From a virus (taxonomy: Duplodnaviria; Heunggongvirae; Uroviricota; Caudoviricetes), in IMG/VR virus record IMGVR_UViG_2711768166_000003: a stretch of DNA of 37,277 nucleotides. The stretch is one strand, 5' to 3'. Position numbers and translations under genes: made by a program. Below the pieces are notes generated by a model that saw nothing but the letters and a program-made list of their open reading frames with translations, was not told where the DNA came from and searched no databases. Shown one piece after another: positions 17,540 through 37,277 of the stretch; the stretch's first letter is position 1; each line of letters opens with the position of its first letter.

Positions 17540-17866
17540 ATGCCTCATAACCCAAATACATGGCTGGAGTTGGTCCAGAGCTGGTGGCGTGGAGACACAC
17601 CGCTGGGCGCAGTGATTATGTCGATTGTTATGGCTGGTTTACGTATTGCCTATTTTGGCGGTGGTGGCGGCTGGAAGCGAAAAACACTCGAAATTCTACT
17701 CTGTGGCGCTCTGACGCTGACTTTTGCATCCGCTCTTGAGTATGTCGGATGGCCTAAATCACTATCTGTTGCCATTGGTGGTGGGGTGGGGCTGATCGGT
17801 GTTGATGCTATTCGTGGGGCTGCAATGAGAGTAATCGGTAACAAGTTTGGTGGCTCTAAGGAGTAA
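17540..17866 (+). CDS. Holin (lambda S-like)
   Basis: 108 aa with hydrophobic helices and a charged C-terminus; architecture parallels lambda S; immediately upstream of the endolysin gene. Confidence 0.8.
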   Translation: MPHNPNTWLELVQSWWRGDTPLGAVIMSIVMAGLRIAYFGGGGGWKRKTLEILLCGALTLTFASALEYVGWPKSLSVAIGGGVGLIGVDAIRGAAMRVIGNKFGGSKE

Positions 17867-17869
17867 TTT

Positions 17870-18346
17870 ATGCAGGTACTAAATTCCCAGCGTAAAGCTT
17901 TCCTGGATATGGTGGCATGGTCAGAGGGAACGGATAACGGGCGACAACCGACACGTAACCACGGTTATGACGTTATTGTCGGTGGAGAACTCTTCACTGA
18001 TTACTCCGATCACCCTCGCAAACTTGTCACGCTAAACCCGAAACTCAAATCAACAGCTGCAGGCCGTTATCAACTTCTTTCACGCTGGTGGGATGCTTAC
18101 CGCAAGCAGCTTGGCCTGAAAGACTTCTCTCCGAAAAGCCAGGACGCTGTGGCACTGCAACAGATTAAAGAGCGTGGCGCTTTACCGATGATTGATCGCG
18201 GTGATATTCGTCAGGCTATCGACCGTTGCAGCAATATCTGGGCTTCACTGCCGGGCGCTGGTTATGGTCAGTTCGAGCATAAGGCTGACAGCCTGATTGC
18301 AAAATTCAAAGAAGCGGGCGGAATGGTCAGAGAGATTGAGGTATGA
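17870..18346 (+). CDS. R: Endolysin R (lytic transglycosylase)
   Basis: Near-identical to lambda R as recalled: [56 protein letters not shown]... Confidence 0.95.
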
Positions 18347-18804
18347 ACAGATTAACCGCGATTATCTCCGCTCTGGTTATCTGCATCATCGTCTGTCTGT
18401 CATGGGCGGTTAATCATTACCGTGATAACGCCATTACCTACAAAGCCCAGCGCGACAAAAATGCCAGAGAACTGAAGCTGGCGAACTCGACAATTACTGA
18501 CATGCAGGTGCGCCAACGTGATGTCGCTGCGCTCGATGCAAAATACACGAAGGAGTTAGCTGATGCGAAAGCTGAAAATGATGCTCTGTGTGATGATGTT
18601 GCCGCTGGTCGTCGTCGGTTGCACATCAAAGCAGTCTGTCAGTCAGTGCGTGAAGCCACCACCGCCTCCGGCATGGATAATGCAGCCTCCCCCCGACTGG
18701 CAGACACCGCTGAACGGGATTATTTCACTCTCAGAGAGAGGCTGATCACTATGCAAAAACAACTGGAAGGAACCCAGAAGTATATTAATGAGCAGTGCAG
18801 ATAG
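18343..18804 (+). CDS. Rz: Spanin inner-membrane subunit Rz
   Basis: Near-identical to lambda Rz: [44 protein letters not shown]... Confidence 0.95.
18563..18745 (+). CDS. Rz1: Spanin outer-membrane lipoprotein Rz1 (embedded in Rz, +1 frame)
   Basis: 60 aa: lipobox LVVVGC and proline-rich [24 protein letters not shown], as in lambda Rz1; fully nested within Rz. Confidence 0.9.
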
Positions 18805-18838
18805 AGCTGCCCATATCGATGGGCAACTCATGCAATTA

Positions 18839-19129
18839 TTATGAGCAATACACCCGCGCTTCCAGCGGAGTATAAATGCCTAAAGTAATAAAACCGAGCA
18901 ATCCATTTACGAATGTTTGCTGGGTTTCTGTTTTAACAACATTTTCTGCGCCGCCACAAATTTTGGCTGCATCAACAGTTTTCTGCTGTCCAATTCCCGA
19001 AACGAAGAAATGATGGGTGATGGTTTCCTTTGGTGTTACTGCTGTCGGTTTGTTTCCAACAGTAAACGTCTGTTGAGCACATCCTGTAATAAGCATTGCC
19101 AGAGCGGCAGAAAACAACATTTTTTTCAT
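18839..19129 (-). CDS. bor: Bor lipoprotein (serum-resistance-associated)
   Basis: MKKMLFSAALAMLITGCAQQTFTV ... ETITHHFFVSGIGQQKTVDAAKICGGAENVVKTETQQTFVNGLLGFITLGIYTPLEARVYCS closely matches lambda Bor; start at the lipoprotein-signal Met, not the longer track ORF. Confidence 0.9.
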   Translation of the reverse strand: MKKMLFSAALAMLITGCAQQTFTVGNKPTAVTPKETITHHFFVSGIGQQKTVDAAKICGGAENVVKTETQQTFVNGLLGFITLGIYTPLEARVYCS

Positions 19130-19653: not shown

Positions 19654-20004
19654 ATGCCCCCACGAACCCCAAAAGCCTGCCGTGTTCGCGGCTGCCGCTC
19701 TACAACCACGGACCCTTCAGGCTACTGCGAAAGCCACAAAAGCGAAGGCTGGAAGCAATACAAACCTGGACAATCCCGTCATCAGCGCGGCTACGGTTCG
19801 AAGTGGGACAGTATCCGCGCGCGTGTCCTGAAGCGTGACAAAGGCCTGTGTCAGTTATGTCTGCGTGCTGGTGTGGTGCGTGAGGCGAAGACCGTTGACC
19901 ACATCATCCCTAAATCGCATGGCGGCACTGATGCCGACTGTAATCTGCAGAGTCTGTGCTGGCCGTGTCATAAGGCGAAGACGGCCCGTGAACGGTTGAA
20001 GTGA
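19654..20004 (+). CDS. HNH endonuclease (packaging-associated)
   Basis: 116 aa; HNH motif DHIIPKSHGGTDADCNLQSLCWPCHKAKT; directly upstream of the small terminase gene, as in HK97-like cos phages. Confidence 0.9.
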   Translation: MPPRTPKACRVRGCRSTTTDPSGYCESHKSEGWKQYKPGQSRHQRGYGSKWDSIRARVLKRDKGLCQLCLRAGVVREAKTVDHIIPKSHGGTDADCNLQSLCWPCHKAKTARERLK

Positions 20005-20010
20005 TAATGA

Positions 20011-20071
20011 TTCTCAACTGCCTGAGGGGAGGGGCGGGTCAAATCCCTGCGGCCTGACGTCTTCCGGACTG
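20011..20071 (+). terminator. GC-rich hairpin with T-tract between HNH and terS (terminator and/or part of the cos region)
   Basis: GGGGCGGG ... CCCGCCCC inverted repeat with ~33-nt loop, followed by ATCGTTTTTTT. Confidence 0.45.
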
Positions 20072-20129
20072 CCCGCCCCATCGTTTTTTTATACCCGCGA
20101 AAAATGAAATTTAACCAGGAGTGCCGCAT

Positions 20130-20624
20130 ATGGCTGGAACGGCGGGGCGTTCCGGGCGTCGCCCCAAGCCAACGGCGCGCAAGGCGCTGGCCGGAAATCC
20201 CGGCAAGCGAGCCCTGAACAAAGATGAACCTGTTTTTACGCCCATCAAAGGTGTTGAGCCACCGGAGTGGTTCGCTGAAGAAGATCTCCCTCTCGCCACG
20301 ATCATGTGGCAACTGACAACCAAAGAACTCTGCGGTCAGGGCCTGCTGTGCGTGACTGACCTCGCGGTGCTTGAGCGGTGGTGCGTGGCCTATGAGTTCT
20401 GGCGACGTGCTGTGAAAAATATTGCCATACAGGGCAACACCATCACCGGCGCAATGGGCGGCAGGGTCAAAAATCCGGAGCTGACAGCCAAAAAAGAACA
20501 GGAGTCCGAGATGAGCAGCACGGGGGCAATGCTCGGACTCGACCCCAGCAGCCGCCAGCGTCTGATTGGCCTGGCGGGGCAGAAGAAAGCCACTAACCCG
20601 TTTCTGAAAATCATCGAATCATGA
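20130..20624 (+). CDS. Terminase small subunit (P27-type)
   Basis: Start ATG 20130 preceded by AGGAG (20117-20121); Arg/Lys-rich N-terminus; immediately upstream of and overlapping the large terminase gene. Confidence 0.8.
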
Positions 20625-22354
20625 GCCGGAAATCTTACCCCAACGTAAATGCTGCCAATCAGTATGCCCGGGATGTCGTGCGCGGAAAGATTGTGGCCTG
20701 CCAGTTTGTGATTCAGGCCTGCCAGCGCCATCTTGATGACCTGATGGCGGAAAAAAGTAAGTCGTTTCGTTACCGCTTCGACAAGGACCTGGCTGAACGG
20801 GCCGCCAAATTTATTCAGCTGTTGCCGCACACCAAGGGTGAGTGGGCATTCAAGAGGATGCCCATCACGCTGGAGCCGTGGCAGCTCTTTGTGATCTGCT
20901 GCGCGTTTGGCTGGGTCAATAAAGGCTCCCGGCTGCGCCGCTTCCGGGAGGTGTATACCGAAATCCCCCGTAAGAACGGCAAATCAGCAATCTCTGCCGG
21001 TGTCGCCCTGTATTGTTTTGCCTGTGATAACGAGTTCGGCGCGGAAGTGTATTCCGGTGCCACGACGGAGAAACAGGCATGGGAAGTCTTTCGTCCGGCA
21101 AGACTGATGTGTAAACGCACACCCATGCTGACGGAAGCGTTCGGGATTGAGGTTAACGCCTCAAACATGAATCGTCCGGAGGATGGCGCGCGGTTTGAAC
21201 CGCTGATCGGTAACCCCGGTGATGGTTCATCACCCCACTGTGCGGTGGTGGATGAATATCACGAGCACGCCACCGATGCGCTTTACACCACGATGCTTAC
21301 CGGGATGGGGGCGCGACGTCAGCCACTGATGTGGGCCATTACTACTGCCGGGTACAACATTGAGGGGCCGTGCTACGACAAGCGACGGGAAGTTATCGAG
21401 ATGCTCAACGGGTCGGTACCCAACGATGAACTGTTCGGGATCATCTATACCGTTGACGAAGGCGATGACTGGACTGACCCGCAGGTGCTGGAAAAAGCTA
21501 ACCCGAATATTGGCGTGTCGGTTTATCGCGAATTTTTGTTAAGTCAGCAGCAGCGTGCGAAAAATAACGCCCGTCTGGCAAACGTCTTTAAAACAAAACA
21601 CCTCAATATCTGGGTGTCGGCGCGTTCGGCGTATTTCAACCTGGTGAGCTGGCAGAGCTGCGAGGATAAATCACTGACCCTTGAGCAGTTCGAGGGGCAG
21701 CCGTGCATTCTGGCCTTTGACCTGGCGCGTAAGCTGGATATGAACAGCATGGCGCGACTTTATACCCGCGAGATTGACGGTAAAACGCATTACTACAGTG
21801 TGGCCCCGCGTTTCTGGGTACCGTATGACACGGTGTACAGCGTCGAGAAAAATGAAGATCGACGGACAGCCGAACGCTTTCAGAAATGGGTGGAAATGGG
21901 CGTTCTGACCGTTACCGATGGTGCGGAGGTGGATTATCGCTACATCCTCGAGGAGGCCAAAGCGGCGAACAAAATCAGCCCGGTCAGTGAGTCACCCATC
22001 GACCCCTTCGGGGCGACCGGGTTGTCACATGACCTTGCTGATGAAGACCTGAACCCCATCACTATCATTCAGAACTACACCAACATGTCCGACCCGATGA
22101 AAGAGCTGGAAGCGGCAATTGAATCGGGGCGCTTTCATCATGATGGCAATCCCATCATGACCTGGTGTATCGGCAACGTGGTCGGCAAAACCATTCCGGG
22201 TAACGATGATGTGGTGAAGCCCGTCAAAGAGCAGGCGGAAAACAAAATCGATGGTGCAGTTGCGCTGATTATGGCGGTTGGCAGAGCCATGCTGTACGAG
22301 AAAGAAGACACGCTGTCTGACCACATTGAGTCCTATGGGATCCGCTCGCTTTAA
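20621..22354 (+). CDS. Terminase large subunit (HK97-type)
   Basis: 577 aa; size and position typical; ATPase Walker A-like region [10 protein letters not shown] and a C-terminal nuclease-type region. Confidence 0.9.
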
Positions 22355-22365
22355 CTGAGGTAATT

Positions 22366-22548
22366 ATGATCATGCTGATTCTCGCGCCTCTGGTGGGCGT
22401 GCTGGGGGCGCTTTTGCTGGCGTATGGTGCCTGGCTGATTTATCCCCCGGCGGGGTTTGTTGTTGCCGGGGCGTTGTGCCTGTTCTGGTCGTGGCTGGTG
22501 GCGCGATATCTCGACCGTACACAGTCGTCTGTCGGCGGAGGTAAATAG
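22366..22548 (+). CDS. Small hydrophobic membrane protein
   Basis: 60 aa, two hydrophobic helices ([22 protein letters not shown] ... [17 protein letters not shown]); GAGGT RBS; between terminase and portal. Confidence 0.5.
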
Positions 22549-23789
22549 TGTTCTTTTCGGGATTATTTCAACAAAAAAGTGACGCACCGGTGACCACGCC
22601 AGCAGAGCTGGCGGATGCTATCGGGTTGTCCTACGACACCTATACCGGAAAGCAGATCAGCAGCCAGCGGGCCATGCGACTGACGGCGGTTTTTTCCTGT
22701 GTCAGGGTGCTGGCGGAGTCGGTCGGGATGTTGCCCTGCAACCTGTATCACCTGAACGGCAGCCTGAAGCAGAGAGCCACTGGCGAACGTCTGCATAAGC
22801 TGATCTCCACGCATCCCAATGGCTATATGACGCCGCAGGAGTTCTGGGAGCTGGTGGTCACCTGTCTGTGCCTGCGGGGAAACTTTTACGCCTACAAAGT
22901 GAAAGCATTTGGCGAAGTGGCTGAACTGCTGCCCGTCGATCCCGGCTGTGTGGTACCGAAGCTTAACAGTAGCTGGGAGCCGGTCTATCAGGTCACATTC
23001 CCGGATGGCTCCACGGATGTACTGAGCCAGGAGGATATCTGGCATGTGCGCACGCTGACGCTGGACGGACTGGTGGGGCTGAATCCCATCGCCTATGCCC
23101 GCGAGGCAATATCGCTGGCGGCAGCGACCGAAGAGCACGGGGCCAGACTGTTCAGCAATGGCGCGGTGACGTCGGGTGTGTTGCGTACAGAGCAGACGCT
23201 GTCAGATCAGGCTTATGAGCGCCTGAAGAAAGATTTTGAGGAGCGTCACACCGGGCTTGGCAATGCTCACCGCCCGATGATCCTTGAGATGGGGCTGGAC
23301 TGGAAGTCGATGGCGCTGAACGCCGAGGACAGCCAGTTCCTGGAAACCCGCAAGTTTCAGCTTGAAGAAATCTGTCGTCTGTTCCGGGTGCCGTTGCACA
23401 TGGTGCAGAACACCGATCGCGCCACCTTCAACAATATCGAAGAGCTGGGGCTGGGATTTATCAACTATTCACTGGTGCCGTATCTGACCCGCATCGAACA
23501 GCGGATCAACACCGGACTGGTACGAAAAAGTAAGCAGGGCGTTTATTACGCCAAATTTAACGCCGGGGCGTTACTGCGCGGGGATATGAAGTCCCGTTTT
23601 GAAGCCTACGCCACCGGGATTAACTGGGGAATTTACTCTCCCAATGACTGCCGCGACCTGGAAGATATGAATCCGCGTCCCGGTGGGGATGTCTATCTCA
23701 CACCGATGAACATGACCACGAAACCCTCCGATGGCAGTAAAGCCGGTAAGCAGAAGGATAACGCCAATGCAGACGAAACAACGTCTTGA
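22548..23789 (+). CDS. Portal protein (HK97-type)
   Basis: 413 aa; GTG start after GGAGG; position between terminase and prohead protease. Confidence 0.85.
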   Translation: MFFSGLFQQKSDAPVTTPAELADAIGLSYDTYTGKQISSQRAMRLTAVFSCVRVLAESVGMLPCNLYHLNGSLKQRATGERLHKLISTHPNGYMTPQEFWELVVTCLCLRGNFYAYKVKAFGEVAELLPVDPGCVVPKLNSSWEPVYQVTFPDGSTDVLSQEDIWHVRTLTLDGLVGLNPIAYAREAISLAAATEEHGARLFSNGAVTSGVLRTEQTLSDQAYERLKKDFEERHTGLGNAHRPMILEMGLDWKSMALNAEDSQFLETRKFQLEEICRLFRVPLHMVQNTDRATFNNIEELGLGFINYSLVPYLTRIEQRINTGLVRKSKQGVYYAKFNAGALLRGDMKSRFEAYATGINWGIYSPNDCRDLEDMNPRPGGDVYLTPMNMTTKPSDGSKAGKQKDNANADETTS

Positions 23790-24417
23790 TGTACCGCTGA
23801 GTCTGAAATCTGTCAGTGACTCCGGTGAGTTTGAAGGGTATGGCTCCGTCTTTGGTGTAAAGGACAGCCACGATGATGTGGTGATGTCCGGGGCATTTGC
23901 TGCTTCCCTGCGGGCGTGGAGTGACAGAAAAGCGTTACCTGCGCTGCTCTGGCAGCACCGCATGGATGAACCCATCGGTGTTTACACCGAAATGAAGGAA
24001 GACGATGTCGGGCTTTACGTCAGGGGACGGTTGCTTATTGATGATGATCCCCTCGCAAAACGCGCACATGCACACATGAAGGCCGGTTCGTTAACCGGCC
24101 TTTCTATTGGGTACGTCCTGAAAGACTGGGAATACGACCGGAGCAAAGAAGCCTTTCTGCTGAAAGAAATCGACCTCTGGGAAGTCAGCCTGGTGACGTT
24201 CCCGTCTAACGACGAGGCGCGGATCAGCGACGTCAAGAACGCACTGGCCCGCGGGGAAATCCCCGAACAGAAAAAAATCGAAAGAGTCCTGCGTGATGTC
24301 GGACTCTCCCGTACCCAGGCCAAAGCATTCATGGCCGGGGGCTATGGCGCACTGTCCCTGCGCGACGCTGAGGATGTGGGCTCTGCACTGAATGCACTGA
24401 AAAATCTGAACTTCTAA
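23767..24417 (+). CDS. Prohead protease (HK97-type)
   Basis: Start at the Met preceded by AAGGA (MQTKQRLDVPL...); N-terminal protease-domain region ...GYGSVFGVKDSHDDVVMSGAF...; sits between portal and capsid. Confidence 0.85.
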   Translation: MQTKQRLDVPLSLKSVSDSGEFEGYGSVFGVKDSHDDVVMSGAFAASLRAWSDRKALPALLWQHRMDEPIGVYTEMKEDDVGLYVRGRLLIDDDPLAKRAHAHMKAGSLTGLSIGYVLKDWEYDRSKEAFLLKEIDLWEVSLVTFPSNDEARISDVKNALARGEIPEQKKIERVLRDVGLSRTQAKAFMAGGYGALSLRDAEDVGSALNALKNLNF

Positions 24418-24431: not shown

Positions 24432-25637
24432 ATGGCGGTTGATATTAAAGATGTCGAACAGGTCGCGCAGGAGCTGCAGCAGAAGTTTGACGACTTCAAA
24501 GCAAAGAACGACAAGCGCGTGGATGCGATTGAGCAGGAAAAAGGCAAGCTTGCCGGGCAGGTGGAAACCCTGAACGGAAAACTCAGCGAGCTGGAAAACC
24601 TCAAAAGCGATCTTGAAAAAGAGCTGCTTGAGCTGAAACGTCCGGCAGGTGGTGCGCAAAATAAACTGACCACCGAGCATAAAGAAGCGTTTGTGGGCTT
24701 CCTGCGTAAAGGCCGTGAAGATGGTCTGCGCGATCTGGAGCGCAAGGCATTACAGGTGGGCACCGATGAAGACGGCGGCTATGCCGTGCCGGAAGCGCTG
24801 GATCGCAACATTCTGACCCTGCTGAAAGATGAAGTGGTGATGCGCCAGGAAGCCACGGTGATCACCGTTGGTGGTTCCGACTACAAAAAACTGGTGAATC
24901 TGGGCGGCACGGCTTCCGGATGGGTTGGCGAGACTGACGCGCGCTCCCAGACTGCCACCTCAAAACTGGGCCTGATTGAACCTTTCATGGGGGAAATCTA
25001 CGGTAACCCGCAGGCCACCCAGAAAATGCTGGATGATGCCTTTTTCAACGTGGAAGCATGGATCAACAGCGAGCTGGCAACCGAATTTGCCGAACAGGAA
25101 GAAATTGCCTTTACCACCGGCGATGGTACCAAGAAGCCGAAAGGGTTCCTGGCGTATGAATCCACGGATGAAACCGATAAGGTCCGGGCGTTCGGCAAAC
25201 TTCAGCATATTGTATCCGGCGACGCGACTGCGGTGACCGCAGACGCCATTATCAAACTGATTTACACGCTGCGTAAGGCACACCGCACCGGCGCGAAGTT
25301 CATGATGAACAACAACAGCCTGTTTGCCATCCGTCTGCTGAAAGACACCGAGGGTAACTATCTGTGGCGTCCGGGGCTGGAACTGGGGCAGCCGTCCTCT
25401 CTGGCGGGTTACGGTATCGCTGAAAACGAACAGATGCCGGATATCGCCGCTGATGCGAAAGCCATTGCATTTGGTAACTTCAAACGGGGTTACACCATCG
25501 TTGACCGTATCGGCACCCGCATTCTGCGTGACCCGTACACCAATAAACCGTTTGTCGGTTTTTATACCACCAAGCGCACCGGCGGGATGCTGGTCGATTC
25601 GCAGGCCATCAAACTGCTGAAGATTGCAGCGGCGTAA
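24432..25637 (+). CDS. Major capsid protein (HK97-fold) with N-terminal coiled-coil delta domain
   Basis: 401 aa; N-terminal ~100 residues coiled-coil-like (scaffold delta domain), then a capsid domain; AGGAG RBS. Confidence 0.9.
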   Translation: MAVDIKDVEQVAQELQQKFDDFKAKNDKRVDAIEQEKGKLAGQVETLNGKLSELENLKSDLEKELLELKRPAGGAQNKLTTEHKEAFVGFLRKGREDGLRDLERKALQVGTDEDGGYAVPEALDRNILTLLKDEVVMRQEATVITVGGSDYKKLVNLGGTASGWVGETDARSQTATSKLGLIEPFMGEIYGNPQATQKMLDDAFFNVEAWINSELATEFAEQEEIAFTTGDGTKKPKGFLAYESTDETDKVRAFGKLQHIVSGDATAVTADAIIKLIYTLRKAHRTGAKFMMNNNSLFAIRLLKDTEGNYLWRPGLELGQPSSLAGYGIAENEQMPDIAADAKAIAFGNFKRGYTIVDRIGTRILRDPYTNKPFVGFYTTKRTGGMLVDSQAIKLLKIAAA

Positions 25638-25686: not shown

Positions 25687-25887
25687 ATGATCCTGAAACA
25701 AGATCTGAAATGGTCACCGGACGGTATGCGTGTTGAGGTCATTCGGGCCGGTGAGTATGACGACGGGGCGCTTCCTGCCCGGGTGCAGGAGATTGCACTT
25801 CAGGCCGGGTTAGCAGAGCGCGGAACCAGTGCAAAAAGCAGTAAAGCGGCAAAAGAGAAAAAAGCCACGACCAGTAAAGAGGGCTGA
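25687..25887 (+). CDS. Small hypothetical head-module protein
   Basis: 66 aa; lysine-rich C-terminus; co-oriented in the head operon. Confidence 0.45.
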   Translation: MILKQDLKWSPDGMRVEVIRAGEYDDGALPARVQEIALQAGLAERGTSAKSSKAAKEKKATTSKEG

Positions 25888-25889
25888 GT

Positions 25890-27837: not shown

Positions 27838-29317
27838 CACCATTCCGTCGAATACGCTGGTTCCGCTGTTTTATGCGGAAATGGATAACCAGGCGGCGAA
27901 TACTGCACAGGACAGCGGGGCATCGTTGCTGATTGGTCACGCCAATAACGGTACAGAGATTGTTGCCAACAGTCTGGTGCTGATGCCGTCGGCAGACTAT
28001 GCACGCCAGATTTGTGGTGCGGGAAGTCAGCTGGCGCGTATGGTCGAGGCTTATCGCCAGACTGACCCGTTTGGCGAGCTGTATGTGATTGCCGTTCCGG
28101 AAGCCACAGGCGCGGCGGCAACGGTTACGCTGACGGTGACCGGGGCGGCAACCGAAACCGGCACGGTGAATGTTTATGTGGGACGTACCCGCGTGCAGGC
28201 ATCGGTGACCAACGGCGATAACGTCGCGACGATTGCCAGCAGTATCCAGGATGCCATCAATGCCGTTCCGGCCCTGCCGTTTACGGCCTCATCTTCGGCT
28301 GGCGTGGTCACACTGACCGCGCGTCATAAGGGGCTTTGCGGGAATGAAATTCCTGTCAGCCTCAATTACTACGGCTTTGGTGGGGGCGAAGTGCTGCCAG
28401 CGGGCGTACAGATTGCCGTGGCGACGGGGACCGCCGGAACGGGCGCTCCGGTTCTCACCGGCGCGGTGGCTGCAATGGCGGATGAGCCGTTTGATTATAT
28501 CGGCCTGCCGTTCAACGACACGGGCTCCGTTAACACGCTGGTGACCGAGATGAACGATACCAGCGGTCGCTGGAGCTATGCGCGTCAGCTGTATGGTCAT
28601 GTGTATACGGCAAAGATCGGCACGCTGTCAGAACTGGTGACCGCAGGTGACCAGTTTAACCAGCAGCACATTACCCTGGCGGGGTACGAAAAAGACACCC
28701 AGACGCCTGCCGACGAGCTGGCGGCAAGCCGTACCGCCCGCGCAGCGGTGTTTATTCGCAACGATCCTGCACGTCCCACGCAGACCGGTGAGCTGGTGGG
28801 TATGCTGCCTGCGCCGAAGGGGAAACGGTTCACGATGACCGAGCAGCAGACCCTGCTGTCTCATGGCGTGGCAACGGCGTATGTCGAAAGCGGGGTGCTG
28901 CGCATTCAGCGTGATGTCACCACGTACAGGAAAAACGCTTACGGGGTTGCGGATAACAGCTACCTCGACAGCGAGACGCTGCATACCAGTGCGTATGTAC
29001 TGCGCAAACTGAAATCCGTCATTACCAGTAAGTACGGGCGTCACAAGCTTGCCAGCGACGGTACCCGCTTTGGTCCCGGTCAGGCGATTGTCACCCCGGC
29101 GGTGATCAAAGGGGAACTGCTGGCAACCTACCGTCAGCTTGAGCGTGCGGGGATCGTGGAAAACTACGAACTTTTTAAGCAGTACCTGGTTGTGGAGCGT
29201 GATGCCAGCGATCCGAACCGCCTGAATACGCTGTTCCCGCCTGACTATGTTAACCAGTTGCGTGTCTTTGCCGTGGTTAATCAGTTCCGTCTTCAGTATT
29301 CAGAGGAGTCTGCATAA
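27821..29317 (+). CDS. Contractile tail sheath protein (Mu gpL-type)
   Basis: 498 aa; immediately followed by the tail tube gene. Confidence 0.9.
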   Translation: MTISFNTIPSNTLVPLFYAEMDNQAANTAQDSGASLLIGHANNGTEIVANSLVLMPSADYARQICGAGSQLARMVEAYRQTDPFGELYVIAVPEATGAAATVTLTVTGAATETGTVNVYVGRTRVQASVTNGDNVATIASSIQDAINAVPALPFTASSSAGVVTLTARHKGLCGNEIPVSLNYYGFGGGEVLPAGVQIAVATGTAGTGAPVLTGAVAAMADEPFDYIGLPFNDTGSVNTLVTEMNDTSGRWSYARQLYGHVYTAKIGTLSELVTAGDQFNQQHITLAGYEKDTQTPADELAASRTARAAVFIRNDPARPTQTGELVGMLPAPKGKRFTMTEQQTLLSHGVATAYVESGVLRIQRDVTTYRKNAYGVADNSYLDSETLHTSAYVLRKLKSVITSKYGRHKLASDGTRFGPGQAIVTPAVIKGELLATYRQLERAGIVENYELFKQYLVVERDASDPNRLNTLFPPDYVNQLRVFAVVNQFRLQYSEESA

Positions 29318-29673
29318 TGGCCCGTATCGGGGGAACCTGTTATTTCAAAATTGACGGTCAGCAGCTATCGCTGACCGGCGGCATTGAGGTGCCCATGAAC
29401 AGGACGGTCAATGATGACATCATCGGCCTGGATGGTTCAGTGGACCGCAAGGAAACTCACCGTGCGCCTTATGTTAAAGGGACCTTCAAGGTGCCGAAGA
29501 ATTTTCCGGTGAGCAAAATCACCTCGTCTGATGAGATGACCATCACTGCCGAGCTGGCGAACGGTCAGGTCTATGTACTGTCGTCTGCCTGGCTGCACGG
29601 CGAAGCGAACCATAATGCCGAAGAAGGCACGGTCGATATTGAGTTCCACGGTGAAGAAGGGGATTACCAGTAA
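29317..29673 (+). CDS. Tail tube protein (Mu gpM-type)
   Basis: 118 aa; between sheath and chaperone genes. Confidence 0.85.
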   Translation: MARIGGTCYFKIDGQQLSLTGGIEVPMNRTVNDDIIGLDGSVDRKETHRAPYVKGTFKVPKNFPVSKITSSDEMTITAELANGQVYVLSSAWLHGEANHNAEEGTVDIEFHGEEGDYQ

Positions 29674-29942
29674 TGAAAGAGCTTGAGTTAAAGAAATCGA
29701 TTACTGCTCATGGCGAGACACTCTCCGTACTGGAGTTTGATGAGCCCACCGGGAAGGATGTCCGCGAGCTGGGGTATCCCTACCAGATGAATCAGGATGA
29801 GTCCGTCAGACTTCTGGCGCATGTGGTGTCGAAATACATTGTGCGGCTGGCGAAAGTGCCGCAAAGCTCTGTCGACCAGATGTCTCCCGCAGATCTGAAT
29901 GCGGCGGCGTGGCTTGTGGCCGGTTTTTTCCTCCAGGCCTGA
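29673..29942 (+). CDS. Tail assembly chaperone (short form)
   Basis: 89 aa; lies between the tube and tape measure genes; ends just after a slippery heptamer. Confidence 0.75.
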   Translation: MKELELKKSITAHGETLSVLEFDEPTGKDVRELGYPYQMNQDESVRLLAHVVSKYIVRLAKVPQSSVDQMSPADLNAAAWLVAGFFLQA

Positions 29943-30091
29943 CGGCTGAATACCTCACTGATCGCTTCTTTGACTGCGCCAGCTACTGGCGCATTAATCC
30001 CTTCGAATTGCTGAATATGCCGATCAGTGAAATTCCCTTACTGGTCAGTCAGGCAAACAGGATAGAGCAGGAGAAACGCACACATGGCTGA
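29673..30091 (+). CDS. Tail assembly chaperone, frameshift-extended form (G/GT-like)
   Basis: Fusion of frame 29673 up to the slippery site with the -1 frame ORF (...GRFFPPGLTAEYLTDRFFDCASYWRINPFELLNMPISEIPLLVSQANRIEQEKRTHG). Confidence 0.55.
29924..29930 (+). promoter_or_regulatory. Programmed -1 ribosomal frameshift site (slippery heptamer T_TTT_TTC) in the tail assembly chaperone
   Basis: In the frame of 29673 the codons are GGT TTT TTC; a -1 slip enters the frame of ORF 29909..30091, which runs to a stop at 30089-30091, overlapping the tape measure start. Confidence 0.6.
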
Positions 30092-31919
30092 ATTTGAGCT
30101 TAAGGCGTTGATCACCGGTGTCGACAGGCTTTCTCCCGCACTGTCGAAAATGCAAAAGAAAATCCGGGGATTTAAACGTCAGGCGGAAGAAGCGTCACAG
30201 GGTGGGCTGGCGCTTGGTGGCGGGCTGGCAGCGGGTCTGACGCTTTCCCTGAAATCTTATGCCGATCAGGAAAACGCCGCCACCGGGCTGAAAGTTGCCA
30301 TGATGGATGCGAACGGTGAGGTCGGAAAGAGCTTTCAGGACATCAATAAACTGGCTATTGGCCTGGGTAACCAGCTACCCGGCACAACGGCTGATTTTCA
30401 GAATATGATGCAGATGCTGGTGCGTCAGGGGATCCCGGCAGAAAACATTCTTGGCGGTGTGGGTAAAGCGACGGCTTATCTTGCGGTACAACTGAAAAAA
30501 ACACCGGAAGCGGCTGCTGAGTTTGCCGCAAAGATGCAGGATGCTACCGGAACGGCATCAGAAGACATGATGGGGCTGTTCGACACAATTCAGAAGGCGT
30601 TTTATCTGGGCGTTGACGATACCAACATGTTGTCCTTTTTCACTAAAACCAGTTCTATTCTGAAGATGGTGAATAAGGACGGTCTTCAGGCTGCCCAGAG
30701 CCTTGCCCCCATCAGCGTCATGATGGATCAGATGGGGATGAACGGGGAGTCGGCAGGTAATGCCCTGCGAAAAGTTATTCAGTCTGGATTAAGCGTTAAG
30801 AAAATCAGGGACGTCAATAAAGTCATGGCCCGCCAGAAACTCGGGGTACAGCTCGATTTTACTGACAGCAAAGGAAGTTTTGGCGGTCTTGATAACATGT
30901 TTAAGCAACTGACAAAGCTGCGAAAACTGACCGACGTTAAGCGAACAGGTGTACTTAAGGCAATATTTGGTGATGATGCCGAAACCCTTCAGGTGGTCAA
31001 TGCGCTGATCGATAAAGGAAAGGATGGTTACGATCAGATCCAGCAAAAGATGAATAAACAGGCCAGCCTGAATAAACGTGTTCAGGCACAGCTTGGTACG
31101 CTGTCCAACCTGTGGGAGGCAATGACGGGGACCGCAACTAACGGCCTTGCGGCTATTGGTGGCGCATTTTCTGATGACGCTAAAAACATCACGCAGTGGC
31201 TGGGGGAGTTGGGGGAAAAATTCACGAAGTTTGCGGATGAAAATCCCCGGGTTATTCGCGGCGTCGTCGGGCTTGCTGCCGGTCTTGCGATTCTGAAACT
31301 GGGATTGATGGGCGTTGGCGGTGCCATCAGTATTGTCAGCAGGATTATGTCGATGACGCCGATTGGCATGATTGCGACGGCGATAGCCCTGGCTGCGGGA
31401 TTAATTATCACTAACTGGGATGTTGTCGGACCTTATTTTAAGAAACTCTGGGAAACCATTGGTCCTTATTTTGAGGCTGGCTGGGAACTCCTTAAGAAAG
31501 TTTTTGCCTGGTCGCCGCTGGGTATGGTGATCAATAACTGGGGGCCGGTTGTTAAGTGGTTTCAGGATATGTGGGACAAGCTGAAGCCAATTATTGAGTG
31601 GTTTACCGACAGTTCCGGTGACACGGTCGATGCCATTAACTCTGCGCAGTGGGGCGCGGGTGCTTATGATGCTTATGGGACGGGAATACCGGCGCGGGGA
31701 TACACACCTTATCCGGCGGTAGATCTGGCTCAGTCAAACAACGCCTCCGATGCCACAGGCCCGAATCCCTTCATGATTAACAAAGCTTCTGCGCCAAAAG
31801 TTGATGGTGAGATCAAGGTCTCTTTTGTGAATTCGCCTCCGGGTATGCGGGTTATGGAAACGCGATCCAGCGGTTTTGATGTCAGCCATGATGTTGGCTA
31901 TACGCGCTTTGGCAGGTAA
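30084..31919 (+). CDS. Tail tape measure protein
   Basis: 611 aa, largely alpha-helical and Gly/Ala-rich with hydrophobic C-terminal segments; follows the frameshifted chaperone. Confidence 0.9.
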   Translation: MAEFELKALITGVDRLSPALSKMQKKIRGFKRQAEEASQGGLALGGGLAAGLTLSLKSYADQENAATGLKVAMMDANGEVGKSFQDINKLAIGLGNQLPGTTADFQNMMQMLVRQGIPAENILGGVGKATAYLAVQLKKTPEAAAEFAAKMQDATGTASEDMMGLFDTIQKAFYLGVDDTNMLSFFTKTSSILKMVNKDGLQAAQSLAPISVMMDQMGMNGESAGNALRKVIQSGLSVKKIRDVNKVMARQKLGVQLDFTDSKGSFGGLDNMFKQLTKLRKLTDVKRTGVLKAIFGDDAETLQVVNALIDKGKDGYDQIQQKMNKQASLNKRVQAQLGTLSNLWEAMTGTATNGLAAIGGAFSDDAKNITQWLGELGEKFTKFADENPRVIRGVVGLAAGLAILKLGLMGVGGAISIVSRIMSMTPIGMIATAIALAAGLIITNWDVVGPYFKKLWETIGPYFEAGWELLKKVFAWSPLGMVINNWGPVVKWFQDMWDKLKPIIEWFTDSSGDTVDAINSAQWGAGAYDAYGTGIPARGYTPYPAVDLAQSNNASDATGPNPFMINKASAPKVDGEIKVSFVNSPPGMRVMETRSSGFDVSHDVGYTRFGR

Positions 31920-31979
31920 TGAAAAATTAATCTGTTAATGAGTCCCACTCCGGTGGGATTTTTTATGTACGGAGTTTAT

Positions 31980-33308
31980 ATGACGTGGAAAGACAGACTT
32001 CAGGACGCGTCATTTCGCGGTGTGCCGTTTAAGGTTGAAGAAGAAAGTGCGGGAACCGGTCGTCGTGTGGAAACGCACGAATACCCGAACCGCGACAAAC
32101 CCTATACCGAAGACCTGGGGAAAATCACTTTCCGCCCGTCCATCACGGCTTATGTGGTGGGAGATGACTGCTTTGACCAGCGCGATCGCCTGATTGACGC
32201 GCTGAATAAACCCGGTCCCGGCACGCTTGTCCATCCGACATACGGTGAGCTGAAAGTCTGTGTTGACGGGGAAGTTCGGGTCAGCACATCGAAAAGTGAA
32301 GGGCGTATTGTCCGCTTTGACCTAAAGTTTGTCGAAGCAGGAGAGCTCTCTTACCCCATATCAGGTGCGGCGACGGCGCAGACGCTGATGTCATCCTGTT
32401 CTGCACTGGATGACTGCATCAGTGACAGCTTCAGCGGTTTCAGTATCGATGGCGTGGCGGATTTTGTGCAGAACGACGTCGTTGGTAATGTCAGCACAAT
32501 GCTTGGGTATGTTTCTGATGCGATGAAAGTGGTGGATTCTGCCGTATCGGATGCGGCCAGGCTGTTGCAGGGGGATATCTCGGTACTTCTGCCGCCACCA
32601 TCGTCAGGCAAAAATTTCGTTGAGCAGGTGCAGAAAATGTGGCGTACCGGGAAACGCCTTTACGGTAACGCCAGCGACCTGGTCACCATGATCAAAACGC
32701 TTTCTGGTGTCAGCCTTGGCAGCGATCTGCAACCGCGCGGCGTCTGGAAAACGGACAGTAAAACCACCGCCACGGCGACGCAGCAGCGTAACGTGGTTGC
32801 CAGCACCCTTCGTACGACTGCAATCAGCGAAGCGGCGTATGCCGTTACCCGATTGCCTGCGCCAACAACTTCCGCGGTGATGCAGAATGCCGCAGTGGGG
32901 CAGGCAACAACACCCGCGCAGAGCACTGGCTGGCCTTCCGTCACGCATCCGGCACTGAACAATGCACCGGCGGTGAAAAGCACGGTTGACCTGCCGACGT
33001 GGGAAGAACTGACTGACATTCGCGACACACTGAATACGGCAATTGATAAGGAGTTGTCCCGTACAACCAGTGATGCGCTGTTTCTGGCGCTGCGCCGGGT
33101 GAAAGCAGATCTGAATGCGGATATCAACACGCGCCTTGAACAGTCTGCACGGATCATTCAGCGCACGCCGGATGAGGTTTTACCCGCGCTGGTGCTGGCG
33201 GCGACCTGGTTTGATAACGCGGCGCGTGACGCGGACATTATCCGGCGTAATGCCATTACGCATCCCGGCTTTGTGCCGGTGATCCCTCTGAAGGTGCCAG
33301 TGCAATGA
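31980..33308 (+). CDS. Mu gpN-like tail / DNA circulation protein
   Basis: Start at ATG 31980 after GGAG; N-terminus MTWKDRLQDASFRGVPFKVEEES typical of this family. Confidence 0.8.
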   Translation: MTWKDRLQDASFRGVPFKVEEESAGTGRRVETHEYPNRDKPYTEDLGKITFRPSITAYVVGDDCFDQRDRLIDALNKPGPGTLVHPTYGELKVCVDGEVRVSTSKSEGRIVRFDLKFVEAGELSYPISGAATAQTLMSSCSALDDCISDSFSGFSIDGVADFVQNDVVGNVSTMLGYVSDAMKVVDSAVSDAARLLQGDISVLLPPPSSGKNFVEQVQKMWRTGKRLYGNASDLVTMIKTLSGVSLGSDLQPRGVWKTDSKTTATATQQRNVVASTLRTTAISEAAYAVTRLPAPTTSAVMQNAAVGQATTPAQSTGWPSVTHPALNNAPAVKSTVDLPTWEELTDIRDTLNTAIDKELSRTTSDALFLALRRVKADLNADINTRLEQSARIIQRTPDEVLPALVLAATWFDNAARDADIIRRNAITHPGFVPVIPLKVPVQ

Positions 33309-34384
33309 ACGATAACGTCACGCTACGGGTAAATGGCCGGGAGTGGAATGGCTGGACATCGGTGCGCATCGGTGCCGGTATTGAACGGCTGGCGCGGGAT
33401 TTCAGTGTGGAGATCACCCGCCAGTGGCCGGGAGATGAGGGTATCACCACGCTTCAGCCGCGTATTAAAAACGGTTCAAAAGTGGAAGTGCTGATTGGTG
33501 ATGAGCTGGTGATCACTGGCTGGGTGGAAGCGACCCCCGTTCGTTACGATGCCCGTTCGGTCAGCACCGGTATTGCCTGGCGTAGTCTGACCGCTGACCT
33601 GATTGACTGTGCAGCCGAACCGACACAGTTTAACGGACGATCGCTGGTTCAGATTGCGCAGGCGCTTGCTGCGCCTTTCGGCATTGAGGTGGTGAACAGC
33701 GGTGCGCCGTCGGGTGTTATTCCTGATGTCCAGCCTGATCACGGCGAAACGGTGATTGAGGTGATCAACAAAATACTCGGTCAGCAGCAGGCACTGGCTT
33801 ACGACGACCCGCACGGCAGGCTGGTGATTGGCGGTATTGGCTCAACGCGGGCACATACCGCGCTGGTACTCGGGGAAAACATCCTTTCCTGCGATACGGA
33901 GAAGAGTATCCGGGAGCGGTTTTCAGTTTACCAGGTGGCGGGGCAGCGTGCCGGAAACGACGATGATTTCGGTGAGGCTACCACCACCGCGCTGCGGGCC
34001 CGCACAGAGGACGCATTTATTGCCCGTTACCGTCCGATGTATATCAGGCAGACAGGGCAGGCTACGGGGGCAGGCTGTATTGCCCGTGCTGACTTTGAAG
34101 CCCGACAACGGGCGGCGCGGACGGATGAAACCACCTATGTGGTGCAGGGCTGGCGACAGGGTAACGGTACGCTGTGGCAGCCCAACCAGCGGGTGATTGT
34201 CTTCGATCCGGTCTGTGGTTTCGATAATACCGAACTGCTTGTTTCGGAAGTCACGTTTACTCAGGACCAGAACGGCACCCTGACGGAAATCCGTGTCGGC
34301 CCGTCTGATGCTTATCTGCCTGAACCCGAAGCCCCCGGCGCGCGGAAAAAGAAAAAAGCCAGAGTACAGGAGGACCCGTTCTGA
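33305..34384 (+). CDS. Mu gpP-like baseplate hub protein
   Basis: 359 aa; overlapping start/stop with neighbours. Confidence 0.8.
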   Translation: MNDNVTLRVNGREWNGWTSVRIGAGIERLARDFSVEITRQWPGDEGITTLQPRIKNGSKVEVLIGDELVITGWVEATPVRYDARSVSTGIAWRSLTADLIDCAAEPTQFNGRSLVQIAQALAAPFGIEVVNSGAPSGVIPDVQPDHGETVIEVINKILGQQQALAYDDPHGRLVIGGIGSTRAHTALVLGENILSCDTEKSIRERFSVYQVAGQRAGNDDDFGEATTTALRARTEDAFIARYRPMYIRQTGQATGAGCIARADFEARQRAARTDETTYVVQGWRQGNGTLWQPNQRVIVFDPVCGFDNTELLVSEVTFTQDQNGTLTEIRVGPSDAYLPEPEAPGARKKKKARVQEDPF

Positions 34385-34932
34385 TGAGGACGATTGAAGC
34401 CATGCAGCGACAACTCCTCGGCCTGATTGGGCGGGCCGTGGTGAAAAGCATCAGTGCCGCCACGAAATGTCAGACCGTGGATGTGTCCCTGATTGCCGGT
34501 GAACCCAAAGCCGGGGTTGAGCATCTTGAACCCTACGGTTTTACCGCAAGGGCAAACAGCGGTGCGGAAGCGGTGGTGTTGTTTCCGGATGGCGACCGTT
34601 CTCATGCGGTGGTTGTTACGGTGTCGGACCGGCGCTACCGCCTGAAAGGGCTGCAGACGGGTGAGGTGGCTGTCTATGACGATCAGGGGCAGTCCGTGAC
34701 GCTGACCCGGGAGGGGATCGTGGTGGACGGTGCAGGTAAAACGATCACGTTTCGCAATTCACCTAAAGCACGTTTTGAAATGGACCTGGAAGTGACAGGA
34801 CAGGTGAAAGACCTGTGCGACTCCAGCGGCACTACCATGTCAGCGATGCGGCTTGCCTATAACGGGCATCGTCACAGAGAGAACGGTCAGGGCAGTAACA
34901 CCGACAAACCTGATAAAGCGATGGAGGCATGA
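34384..34932 (+). CDS. Baseplate assembly protein V / spike (Mu gp45-like)
   Basis: 182 aa; conserved order in the baseplate module. Confidence 0.8.
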   Translation: MRTIEAMQRQLLGLIGRAVVKSISAATKCQTVDVSLIAGEPKAGVEHLEPYGFTARANSGAEAVVLFPDGDRSHAVVVTVSDRRYRLKGLQTGEVAVYDDQGQSVTLTREGIVVDGAGKTITFRNSPKARFEMDLEVTGQVKDLCDSSGTTMSAMRLAYNGHRHRENGQGSNTDKPDKAMEA

Positions 34933-35357
34933 TGGAACTGTGGCTGACGGTGAACGGTAAACGCACCTGCGCCAGCGCACCGCTGGATCCGCTGACCCGC
35001 GCCGTGGTGATTTCCCTGTTTACCTGGCGGCGGGCGGAGCCTGATGACAACGCCGACGTCCCGATGGGATGGTGGGGGGATACCTGGCCTGCGGTACAGA
35101 ATGACCGTTACGGCTCCCGACTGTGGCTGCTTCAGCGCAGCAAACTGACCAATCAGCTGGTGCAGACGGTAAGGGGGTATATCCGCGAATGCCTGCAATG
35201 GATGATTGATGACGGCGTGGTGTCCCGTATTGATCTGGATATCCGCCGCACTGGGATTAATGAACTGGGTAACAGTATCACTCTCTGGCGTCGTGACGGA
35301 CCGGTAATGATTTCTTTTGATGATCTGTGGAGTGCGATAACGCATGGCGGACAGTGA
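34929..35357 (+). CDS. Baseplate protein (gp46 / GPW-like)
   Basis: 142 aa; position between the V-like and J-like genes. Confidence 0.8.
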   Translation: MMELWLTVNGKRTCASAPLDPLTRAVVISLFTWRRAEPDDNADVPMGWWGDTWPAVQNDRYGSRLWLLQRSKLTNQLVQTVRGYIRECLQWMIDDGVVSRIDLDIRRTGINELGNSITLWRRDGPVMISFDDLWSAITHGGQ

Positions 35358-36402
35358 ATTTCAGCGCCCGACGCTGGCAGAAAATATCAGTATGCTCCGT
35401 AACGATTTATTCGCCAGGCTGGACGTCAGCGACACGCTCCGGCGCATGGATGAAGACGTGCGGGCAAAGGTGTATGCGGCGGCGCTGCATACGGTTTACG
35501 GGTACATCGATTATCTGGCGATGAACATGCTGCCTGACCTGTGCGATGAGTCCTGGCTGGCGCGACATGCTGCGATGAAACGGTGTCCGCGCAAGGGGGC
35601 CACTGCTGCCAGCGGGTATATGCGCTGGGAAGGTGTCAGCGATGGCCTGAAGGTGACCGCCGGGAGTGTTATTCAGCGCGATGACCTGGTTCAGTACACG
35701 GCAACTGCCGATGCAACCAGCTCCGGTGGTGTCCTGCGCGTGCCGATCGCCTGCTCAAGTGCAGGCGCGGTCGGTAACGCTGACGACGGTACGTCATTAA
35801 TCCTGGTCACGCCGGTTAATGGTCTGCCGTCTTCCGGCGTGGCAGATACCCTGACAGGTGGATTTGATACTGAAGAGCTGGAAACGTGGCGAGCCCGCGT
35901 CATTGAGCGGTATTACTGGACGCCGCAGGGCGGGGCTGACAGGGACTATGTCGTCTGGGCTAAAGAAGTGCCCGGCATTACCCGCGCATGGACATACCGT
36001 CACTGGATGGGAACGGGGACTGTCGGTGTGATGATTGCCAGCAGTGACCTGATTAATCCCATTCCGGAAGAATCAACGGAAACGGCAGCAAGACAACATA
36101 TCGGGCCACTGGCCCCGGTGGCAGGCTCTGATTTGTATGTGTTCAGGCCGGTGGCACATACGGTGGATTTTCATATCCGTGTGACGCCGGACACACCGGA
36201 AATACGGGCTGCCATCACCGCGGAGTTGCGTTCGTTCCTGCTGCGTGATGGTTATCCGCAGGGAGAACTGAAGGTATCGCGTATCAGTGAGGCGATTTCC
36301 GGTGCGAACGGGGAATACAGCCATCAGTTGCTTGCACCGGCAGACAATATCTCCATTGCAAAAAATGAACTGGCGGTACTGGGGACGATTTCATGGACGT
36401 GA
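35344..36402 (+). CDS. Baseplate J-like protein (Mu gp47-like)
   Basis: 352 aa; conserved order. Confidence 0.85.
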
Positions 36403-36977
36403 CAAACGATGATTACATCCGTCTGTTGTCGGCACTGTTGCCCCCCGGTCCGGCGTGGTCAGCCAGCGATCCGGCGATTGCCGGTGCGGCACCGTCATTA
36501 TCCCGCGTTCATCAGCGTGCGGATGCCCTGATGCGGGAGCTGGATCCGCGCACCACCACTGAACTGATAAACCGCTGGGAGCGTCTGTGCGGTCTGCCGG
36601 ATGAATGTATTCCCGCAGGGACACAGACCCTTCGCCAGCGTCAGCAACGGCTGGATGCGAAGGTTAACCTGGCGGGCGGCATCAACGAGGATTTTTATCT
36701 TGCACAGCTTGCTGCCCTGGGCAGACCAGATGCCACTATCACGCGATACGACAAAAGCACGTTCACCTGCTCATCGGCCTGTACTGACGCTGTGAACGCG
36801 CCTGAATGGCGGTATTACTGGCAGGTCAACATGCCAGCCGCCACCAACACCACCTGGATGACATGTGGCGATCCCTGTGATTCCGCACTGCGTATCTGGG
36901 GCGACACAGTTGTCGAATGTGTGCTTAACAAACTCTGCCCGTCGCATACCTACGTAATTTTTAAATATCCGGAGTAA
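36393..36977 (+). CDS. Tail protein (Mu gp48-like, DUF2313; e14 YmfQ-like)
   Basis: 194 aa, the same size as e14 YmfQ as I recall it; precedes the tail fibre gene. Confidence 0.75.
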
Positions 36978-36980
36978 TCC

Positions 36981-37277
36981 ATGCATCGTATAGACACGAA
37001 AACCGCGCAGAAGGATAAGTTCGGCGCGGGTAAGAACGGTTTTACCCGTGGTAACCCCCAGACCGGCACGCCTGCCACCGATCTGGATGATGACTACTTT
37101 GACATGTTGCAGGAAGAGCTCTGCAGCGTGGTGGAGGCATCCGGTGCCAGCCTGGAGAAGGGGCGGCATGACCAGCTGCTTACCGCGCTTCGTGCGCTGC
37201 TGTTAAGTCGCAAAAATCCGTTTGGCGATATCAAATCGGACGGCACGGTGAAAACGGCTCTTCAAAACCTTGGTTTG
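36981..37277 (+). CDS. Side tail fibre protein, N-terminal part (continues beyond window end)
   Basis: ATG 36981 after GGAG; N-terminus [47 protein letters not shown] typical of enterobacterial prophage tail fibre proteins. Confidence 0.6.

Follow-up and report, generated by a model that had tools for sequence, protein, structure and literature searches.

What is to be made of a prophage whose lysis genes are near to those of lambda, whose packaging genes are of the HNH/P27 type, and in which a head of the HK97 type is combined with a contractile tail like that of Mu? The question is raised by IMG/VR record IMGVR_UViG_2711768166_000003, the whole 37,277 nucleotides (nt) of which are here termed the window, the region examined being window 17540-37277. 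Very probably, going by its sequence, the window contains the greater part of an apparently complete SfV-like lambdoid myovirus prophage, integrated at icd by an e14-type integrase. The group concerned is that of SfV, SfII, SfI and SfIV, with ST64B and phiP27 as more distant members. The composition given above is that of a first-pass annotation, and as a description it is accurate by family matches and tblastn; what has to be settled is whether the combination is new, and how it relates to the e14 element of Escherichia coli K-12.

Protein comparisons were by tblastn against reference genomes (lambda, HK97, Mu, SfV and K-12 e14), family assignments were with Pfam and NCBIfam/TIGRFAM at curated cut-offs, a phage collection of 50,697 records was compared by megablast, and the E. 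coli set was of 5,426 complete genomes. Apart from bor/iss, the sole minus-strand gene, the region is one unbroken series of plus-strand open reading frames (ORFs). All the genes that had been named in it are present where they had been placed, with their ORFs intact, and each late gene from S to the baseplate falls in its expected family above the curated cut-offs of Pfam and NCBIfam (Table 1).

A late region of known type

The phage records that match best are SfII, SfI, SfIV, SfV and vB_EcoM-689R6, with 97.0-97.5% identity over 68-93% of the region. Among the complete E. coli genomes, 845 of the 5,426 contain at least 80% of it, and in strains MS1657, VTB96929v, A42 and S87 it is 100% identical. 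SfII (NC_021857) 1-17273 corresponds to window 20005-37277 as a single ungapped block, with 97.5% identity over 17,273 bp, and from TerS to gp48 each of the 22 late ORFs is of equal length in the two. Taken from HNH to the tail fibre (19654-37277), head cassette included, the late region matches that of SfII at 92-97.5% DNA identity (HNH itself at 92%), the S-R genes do so at 90%, and SfII 28452-35537, cI through Q, corresponds to window 7699-14830 at 96.3%. SfII differs in integrating at tRNA-thrW with another integrase and in its gtr O-antigen genes, none of which the window has; its Rz/Rz1 are different, it is without bor, its cargo between Q and S is different and the early-left genes (window 5536-7698) are partly so. 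As 19654-37277 together with S and R aligns to SfII/SfI/SfV at 90-97.5%, which is to say nearly completely to one described phage type, the mosaic interpretation is correct but not new.

The two features that mark the group are both present. One is the lambdoid order of int-xis, early-left, cI/cro, replication, nin, Q, lysis, cos, terminase, head and tail, and the other is the joint occurrence of HK97-family head genes and contractile tail genes (sheath, tube and Mu-like baseplate). SfV-like phages have been described as a distinct group of lambdoid Myoviridae (PMC3603311), the grouping being credited in passages of that paper to Allison 2002 and Mmolawa 2003. Traced through citations in PMC3603311, PMC3636060 and PMC3851460, the mosaic of lambdoid genome, HK97 head and contractile tail has been in the literature since 2002-2003. 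By electron microscopy SfI, SfII, SfIV and SfV have been shown to be myoviruses; their head proteins are of the HK97 family (PMC3851460) and they package their DNA from cos (PMC3636060). With the mosaic architecture, the module prototypes and the e14 relationship already published for the SfV-like group, and near-identical prophages common in public genomes, the main value of the window is a good annotation.

Old and recent parts of the mosaic

Where do the joints of the mosaic lie, and how old are they? SfV (NC_003444) aligns to window 20063-22293 and 25889-37277, and not to the intervening ymfR-portal-protease-capsid cassette. Its TerS, TerL and connector-to-tail-fibre region have 96-97% DNA identity to the window (the tail block 25889-37277 is shared at 96.7% over 11.4 kb), its nin-region genes have 88-98% amino acid (aa) identity, and its S and R are given in Table 1; its portal-protease-capsid genes are another HK97-family allele, with 26-28% identity to those of the window or no match, and its Q, Rz/Rz1, integrase and gtr cargo differ. 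The window's cassette, 22337-25763, is 96.8% identical to that of Stx phage phi467, in which the genes downstream are annotated as a siphovirus-type tail (minor tail proteins and a 3.2-kb tape measure gene). The blocks at the DNA level are thus lambda-like R-Rz-Rz1-bor (17888-19183), the head cassette, and the Mu-like tail (25889-37277). It is in the sharpness of these boundaries that the reading as a module-exchange mosaic holds good; as something new it does not, the SfII/SfI/SfV alignment covering nearly the whole region.

That the packaging and head genes are of HK97/P27 type is borne out by TIGR01558, TIGR01537, TIGR01543 and TIGR01554, all above their cut-offs, and for HNH by PF01844. 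Portal, protease and capsid belong to the same families as their HK97 counterparts at 32, 36 and 26% aa identity (TerL, 26%), and in both genomes HNH adjoins the terminase genes. The tail of HK97 is siphoviral and unrelated to that of the window, and DNA similarity to HK97 is limited to the lysis genes (window 17888-18612, 85%). For the tail, the sheath, tube and baseplate families and the collinearity with Mu gp38-gp48 at 26-42% aa identity support the claim of a Mu-like contractile organelle, tube and chaperone being in the same Pfam families as those of Mu; Mu gp42 and the tape measure protein of the window are in different ones. No window protein outside 27667-36977 has a tblastn match to Mu, and so there is no Mu transposase in the window; Mu head genes and lysis genes are likewise absent. 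Unlike Muvirus, the prophage has O-like replication and a tyrosine integrase for its integration. With lambda the window has in common its overall gene order and R, Rz, Rz1 and Bor, at the 94, 95, 97 and 92% aa identity that justify calling them near to lambda; the only further tblastn matches are to Int (35%) and O (31%). The tail of lambda is non-contractile, its head, tail, terminase, repressor and Q genes are absent from the window, and no window protein has a tblastn match in its structural region (Nu1/A/B/C/D/E of the head; V, H and J of the tail).

Judged by sequence divergence, the relationships of head to HK97 and of tail to Mu are to be regarded as ancient and at the level of family, the latter because DNA-level similarity is lacking and protein identity is so low, and the relationship of R/Rz/Rz1/bor to lambda as recent. 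The mosaic itself is ancient and group-defining, and the later exchanges relative to SfII/SfV are the Rz-Rz1-iss block, the integration module, the loss of gtr and the cargo genes. Might the window instead be a new and recent chimera of a lambda-like siphovirus and a Mu-like myovirus, i.e., a new architecture? The 92% DNA identity of the R-Rz-Rz1-bor block to lambda would suit such a history, as would the deposited phage records being without the Rz-iss-HNH-terS junction. It is highly improbable, being contradicted by the single 17.3-kb SfII block: the same architecture is found at 97% in SfII, SfI, SfIV and SfV, described 10-20 years ago, the likeness to Mu is of the ancient kind just mentioned, and the exact junction, Rz-iss-HNH-cos-terS, is already present in 196 complete E. 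coli genomes.

Integration at icd and a tandem neighbour

The SfV-like prophage is bounded on its left by a phage-borne copy of the icd 3' end, the counterpart of which is annotated as an icd pseudo-fragment in an identical public genome, and from window 1258, which is position 1711 of the e14 locus (L002), the DNA is homologous to that of e14 at its left end. The int/xis module has 87% DNA identity to that of e14. In MS1657 an icd 3' fragment stands at either end of the element, and on one side the flank is that of K-12 e14 (ycgX, bluR, bluF); in strain A42 the same prophage directly adjoins the real icd. The prophage is accordingly inserted, in the manner characteristic of the e14 family, at the icd 3' end, which is duplicated. 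Phage vB_EcoM-689R6 (ON470584) is also at icd with an e14-type int/xis, and covers 93% of the region at 97.4%; its Rz is of SfV type, bor/iss is absent, its Q and Q-S cargo are unlike those of the window, a DUF262 gene stands beside its int, and its pin and mcrA are intact. The Shigella serotype-converting phages have gtr beside int and the tRNA-thrW site, where the window instead has a P-loop ATPase gene beside int and the icd site; none of its proteins matches the SfV gtr region, with its gtrA/gtrB/gtr(type) genes next to int.

Window 1-1254 belongs to an adjacent element, as its right end. This neighbour is in MS1657 a siphovirus prophage of lambda-like type, in tandem at icd (NZ_CP135957.1 2930000-2979000, below L008), that carries ompC, sitABCD and a second iss; its published equivalent is 'PAI-icd (Iss, Sit)' (PMC7545054). 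With tandem prophages there are three copies of the icd 3' end. Over about the first 3.4-5 kb the window and MS1657 are 99.2% identical with indels, and window 479-976 has no counterpart there; the window does not come from that strain.

The lysis cassette and iss

The lysis module had been called lambda-type. For R, Rz, Rz1 and bor this is apt; the holin S is SfV-like, and although its family is that of the lambda holin, its identity to lambda S is no more than 24%. It is the segment from mid-R to bor that is lambda-like, window 17888-19183 having 92.2% DNA identity to lambda 45511-46809 over 1.3 kb, and in SfV, SfII and 689R6 the Rz/Rz1 are of other kinds and bor is missing (tblastn gave no match between the window's Rz and that of SfV). 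The name bor is appropriate to the close match with lambda Bor, while identical public genomes annotate the gene as iss. Its presence here means that this serum-resistance gene of extraintestinal pathogenic and avian pathogenic E. coli (ExPEC/APEC) is carried by SfV-like prophages, and not by lambda-like ones alone. From iss to HNH there is a non-coding stretch of ~400 bp, 19249-19653. Lambda, SfV and SfII have nothing that matches it, and the only similarity, at 88%, is to some vB_EcoS records of prophage origin, e.g., ON470612.

Rz-Rz1-iss occurs twice in MS1657, as a 906-bp direct repeat the copies of which (window 18343-19248 and L008 29963-30866) are ~47 kb apart and 96.7% identical, and so closer to each other than to lambda (92%). 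One may ask, with doubt outweighing confidence, whether the lambda-type Rz-Rz1-iss was acquired by recombination between tandem icd prophages, and perhaps is still exchangeable through it. If so, a single crossover would give a hybrid with the early and lysis genes of the lambda-like prophage and the packaging, head and contractile-tail genes of the SfV-like one, and would delete the structural genes of the neighbour and sitABCD, together with the integration, early and regulatory genes of the present prophage. Tandem lysogeny at icd would then generate new lambdoid siphovirus/myovirus hybrids and spread iss.

The same repeat, with a true lambda-like prophage just across attL in the closest complete genome, could be taken to mean that the lysis genes are those of a lambda-like remnant that merely lies beside a separate myovirus prophage. 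Such an artefact of juxtaposition has next to nothing in its favour by way of probability. There is only one int/xis pair, and a single set of icd repeats encloses the element, within which the lambdoid order runs unbroken from int as far as the tail fibre, the part from cI onwards being collinear with SfII; SfII/SfV-type S and R are followed by the Rz-iss block and this in turn by an SfII-like HNH-cos-terS, with no att site, integrase or host gene seen between 17249 and 20130, and in A42 the prophage stands alone at icd.

What e14 has lost

From their sizes, ORFs of 185, 112 and 194 aa had been likened to K-12 ymfL, ymfM and ymfQ, and these they are, at 99, 99 and 98% identity; the first two lie at 8992-9884, outside the part of the window for which they had been cited. 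The larger suggestion, that an intact relative of e14 had come to light, is strongly confirmed by the shared icd site, the e14-type Int/Xis, three collinear blocks of e14 DNA (Table 1) and the two deletions that separate them. Along the collinear genes the protein identity to e14 is 96% for Int, 94% for Xis, 97% for YmfI, 91% for YmfJ, 99% for YmfL and YmfM, 100% for YmfR and 98% for YmfQ and StfP.

Window 10128-21217 and 22956-35614 are missing from e14, as deletions of ~11.1 and 12.7 kb, and the junctions, 10127/21218 and 22955/35615, are at microhomologies of 3 bp (GGT) and 4 bp (GGTA), which suggests illegitimate recombination. On this alignment K-12 e14 is the twice-deleted remnant of a prophage like the present one, at the same icd site. 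It follows from the three collinear blocks that oweE, aaaE, beeE and jayE are the stumps of the replication, TerL, portal and baseplate J genes: the C-terminal 66% of TerL is 99% identical to aaaE, and the N-terminal 34% of the portal protein 98% identical to beeE. Attachment site and orientation are the same in e14, which otherwise has another repressor (YmfK), ymfD-ymfE-lit beside int and pin-mcrA at its far end. The e14 immunity type (YmfK repressor/YmfT) is not that of the window, whose CI-like repressor has 38% identity to YmfK across 21% of the protein and which yields no cro/YmfT match. Scans of the whole window for tRNAs and with Rfam gave no match, whether to an SfI-like tRNA pair or to the e14 small RNA C0293.

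Mehta, Casjens and Krishnaswamy (2004) reportedly argued that e14 is a lambdoid relative of SfV which has undergone deletion. What the window adds is a base-level picture of its origin, by two deletions from an SfV-like lambdoid myovirus at icd. An intact 'e14' prophage, that of E. coli S88, was aligned with SfI at 97% by Sun et al. 2013 (PMC3636060).

A predicted life cycle, and is the prophage alive?

The steps that follow are predicted from the genes present, with characterised relatives as a guide. Lysogeny would be kept by the CI-type repressor. On induction, Q would antiterminate late transcription begun just upstream of S, by a start that lies, from the position of the candidate terminator, probably between 17249 and 17366. 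HNH, TerS and TerL would then cut concatemers at the 10-nt cos, 20070-20079. The 10-nt cos of SfI, which has been experimentally determined (PMC3636060), is identical to TGCCCGCCCC, and the two ends of the SfV record meet at window 20062/20063; a 10-nt cohesive end between HNH and terS is thus present as in the SfV-like group, with cleavage there predicted. The DNA would be packaged into an HK97-fold capsid made with portal, protease and capsid protein. The Pfam domain of the last starts at residue 115, consistent with room for an N-terminal delta (scaffolding) domain. Connectors would attach this capsid to a contractile tail of Mu-like kind, consisting of terminator, sheath, tube, frameshifted chaperone, tape measure and baseplate (gp44-48). 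By direct reading of the sequence there is a slippery heptamer, T_TTT_TTC, at 29926-29932 and a -1-frame ORF at 29909-30091, and we infer that -1 frameshifting could extend the chaperone product encoded by 29673-29942 to 30091. S, R, Rz and Rz1 would lyse the cell, and iss/bor and the DS-1 pair (below) would be cargo expressed by the lysogen to the benefit of its host.

Several points tell against an apparently complete SfV-like prophage. It is known here from sequence alone, virions having been seen for relatives only. The window stops within the tail fibre gene, and the right end can be seen only in the near-identical MS1657, where pin is truncated. No late promoter was found, a consensus scan giving 12 matches when 12.0 were expected from shuffled sequence, and with matches as frequent as in shuffled sequence none is claimed. 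The Rz-iss-HNH-terS junction occurs in no record of the phage collection at 80% or more of its length, and this leaves the viability of the exact module combination as a phage putative.

Is the prophage, then, of SfV type but defective (cryptic) as e14 is, and kept for its cargo of iss, DS-1 and P-loop ATPase? Its inducibility is predicted from genes alone, decay is common in icd prophages, with e14 itself an example, and the tandem neighbour may hinder excision. The right prophage end in MS1657 (L001 5444-9400, i.e., NZ_CP135957.1 2890443-2894400), which is beyond the window, retains of the pin invertase just a fragment of 144 bp, so that the tail-fibre inversion switch has probably been lost there, and a 1.9-kb DUF262 gene occupies the position that mcrA has in e14 and 689R6. 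Set against this, the 100%-identical late region is annotated without frameshift or pseudogene, the late ORF lengths all equal those of SfII, and int, xis, Q, the repressor and replication genes, the cos 10-mer and the frameshift site of the chaperone gene are all intact. A defective prophage is unlikely, and an apparently complete one is the reading followed here.

Features of the window and its cargo

Table 1. Annotated features of the 37,277-nt window in order of position (aa, amino acids; GC, guanine plus cytosine fraction)
Feature	Position	Strand	Basis or remark
Left prophage end (attL side), phage-borne copy of icd 3' end	1255..1421	+	93% aa to K-12 icd end
P-loop ATPase, Sll1717/KAP family, 527 aa	1764-3347	+	GC 0.31; between icd fragment and int
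e14-type tyrosine integrase	3478..4605	-	96% aa over 100% of K-12 IntE; lambda Int 35%
Excisionase	4586..4831	-	94% aa to K-12 XisE
CI-like repressor, SfII immunity type	7949..8641	-	within 96.3% SfII block including cI
e14 block	8964-10127		e14 locus (L002) 8741-9904; 99.0%
ymfL (185 aa, CII-like regulator) and ymfM (112 aa)	8992..9884	+	99% each to K-12
Late-gene antiterminator Q	14520..14876	+	PF06530, E 2.7e-47
DS-1 anti-phage pair, two low-GC genes between Q and S	14856..17248	-	GC 0.33-0.36
Terminator-like hairpin then T run, candidate tR'	17366..17387	+	top site in consensus scan, upstream of S
Holin S	17540..17866	+	PF05106, TIGR01594; 95% to SfV S
Endolysin R, lambda-type transglycosylase	17870..18346	+	94% lambda R, 96% HK97, 92% SfV
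Spanin Rz	18343..18804	+	95% to lambda Rz; PF03245
Rz1, embedded in Rz in another frame	18563-18745	+	97% to lambda Rz1; PF06085
Bor/Iss serum-resistance lipoprotein, lysogenic-conversion gene	18839..19129	-	92% to lambda Bor; PF06291
HNH endonuclease beside cos	19654..20004	+	PF01844; 94% to SfV orf53
cos cohesive-end sequence TGCCCGCCCC	20070..20079	+	single occurrence in window
Small terminase subunit, P27 family	20130..20624	+	TIGR01558 72.2 bits, cut-off 45.6; 98% to SfV
Large terminase subunit	20621..22354	+	PF03354, PF20441; 98% to SfV
e14 block	21218-22955		e14 locus (L002) 9902-11639; 97.3%
ymfR, 60 aa	22366..22548	+	100% to K-12 YmfR
Portal protein, HK97 family	22548..23789	+	TIGR01537 260 bits; 32% to HK97 gp3
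Prohead protease, HK97 family	23767..24417	+	TIGR01543 158 bits; 36% to HK97 gp4
Major capsid protein, HK97 family	24432..25637	+	TIGR01554 385 bits
66-aa ORF, head-tail connector, head closure protein, 168-aa protein, tail terminator	25687..27658	+	
DUF2635 protein, Mu gp38 counterpart	27667..27837	+	PF10948; 42% to Mu gp38
Contractile tail sheath	27821..29317	+	three Pfam sheath domains; 36% over 100% of Mu L/gp39
Tail tube	29317..29673	+	PF10618, family also matched by Mu gp40
Tail assembly chaperone	29673..30091	+	PF10109, same family as Mu gp41
Tape measure protein	30084..31919	+	PF10145; 99% to SfV orf14
DNA circulation protein, Mu gp43/N counterpart	31938..33308	+	PF07157 (DNA_circ_N); 26% to Mu gp43
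Five baseplate genes: Mu gp44/P hub, gp45 spike, gp46, gp47/J, gp48 (= YmfQ)	33305..36977	+	
e14 block	35615-37277		e14 locus (L002) 11636-13298; 96.5%
Tail fibre gene, N-terminal part, cut by window end	36981..37277	+	98% e14 StfP; 97% SfV orf21

The head-tail joining genes match PF05135, PF05521, PF23840, TIGR01560 and TIGR01563. The baseplate families are PF21683, PF22255, PF21929, PF06890, PF07409, PF04865 and PF10076, the order of Mu gp44-gp48 being kept at 27-41% identity; YmfQ, of 194 aa, is the last of these.

The cargo slot between Q and S is occupied by the DS-1 pair, so that a recently validated defence pair is here given its place in an SfV-like prophage. DS1_2_antiphage has 404 aa and DS1_1_antiphage 391 aa, the latter with a YejK/NA37 nucleoid-associated domain, and the pair scores 374.9 bits with NF053869 (cut-off 315) and 451.4 bits with NF053868 (cut-off 330). 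At 99% identity or more it is found in 106 of the 5,426 complete E. coli genomes, and the 50,697 phage records contain no such copy; PADLOC, in its 2023 version, gave no significant match for the cargo genes. The DS-n names originate in the DefensePredictor paper (PMC13092281).

The P-loop ATPase gene on the integrase side is annotated as shorter in MS1657, with 428 aa (mapped to 1788-3071). DS-41 was tried as an identity for it and rejected: the match to DS41_1 is of 48 bits when the cut-off is 370, and with a score so far below it the protein is filed as of the Sll1717/KAP family only. In the same slot e14 has ymfD-ymfE-lit, and vB_EcoM-689R6 its DUF262 gene. This integrase-side slot looks like one for variable cargo or defence, and the far end in MS1657, with the DUF262 gene already mentioned, looks like a second variable defence slot.

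Among the early genes, ymfL matches PF06892 and NF041471. The gene ymfM, named in K-12 for a cell-division inhibitor, lies within 9546-9904 and overlaps in another frame a DUF4222 ORF of 59 aa (9725-9904). Both are 99-100% conserved with K-12, and the Prokaryotic Genome Annotation Pipeline (PGAP) annotates ymfM in K-12 and the DUF4222 ORF in MS1657.

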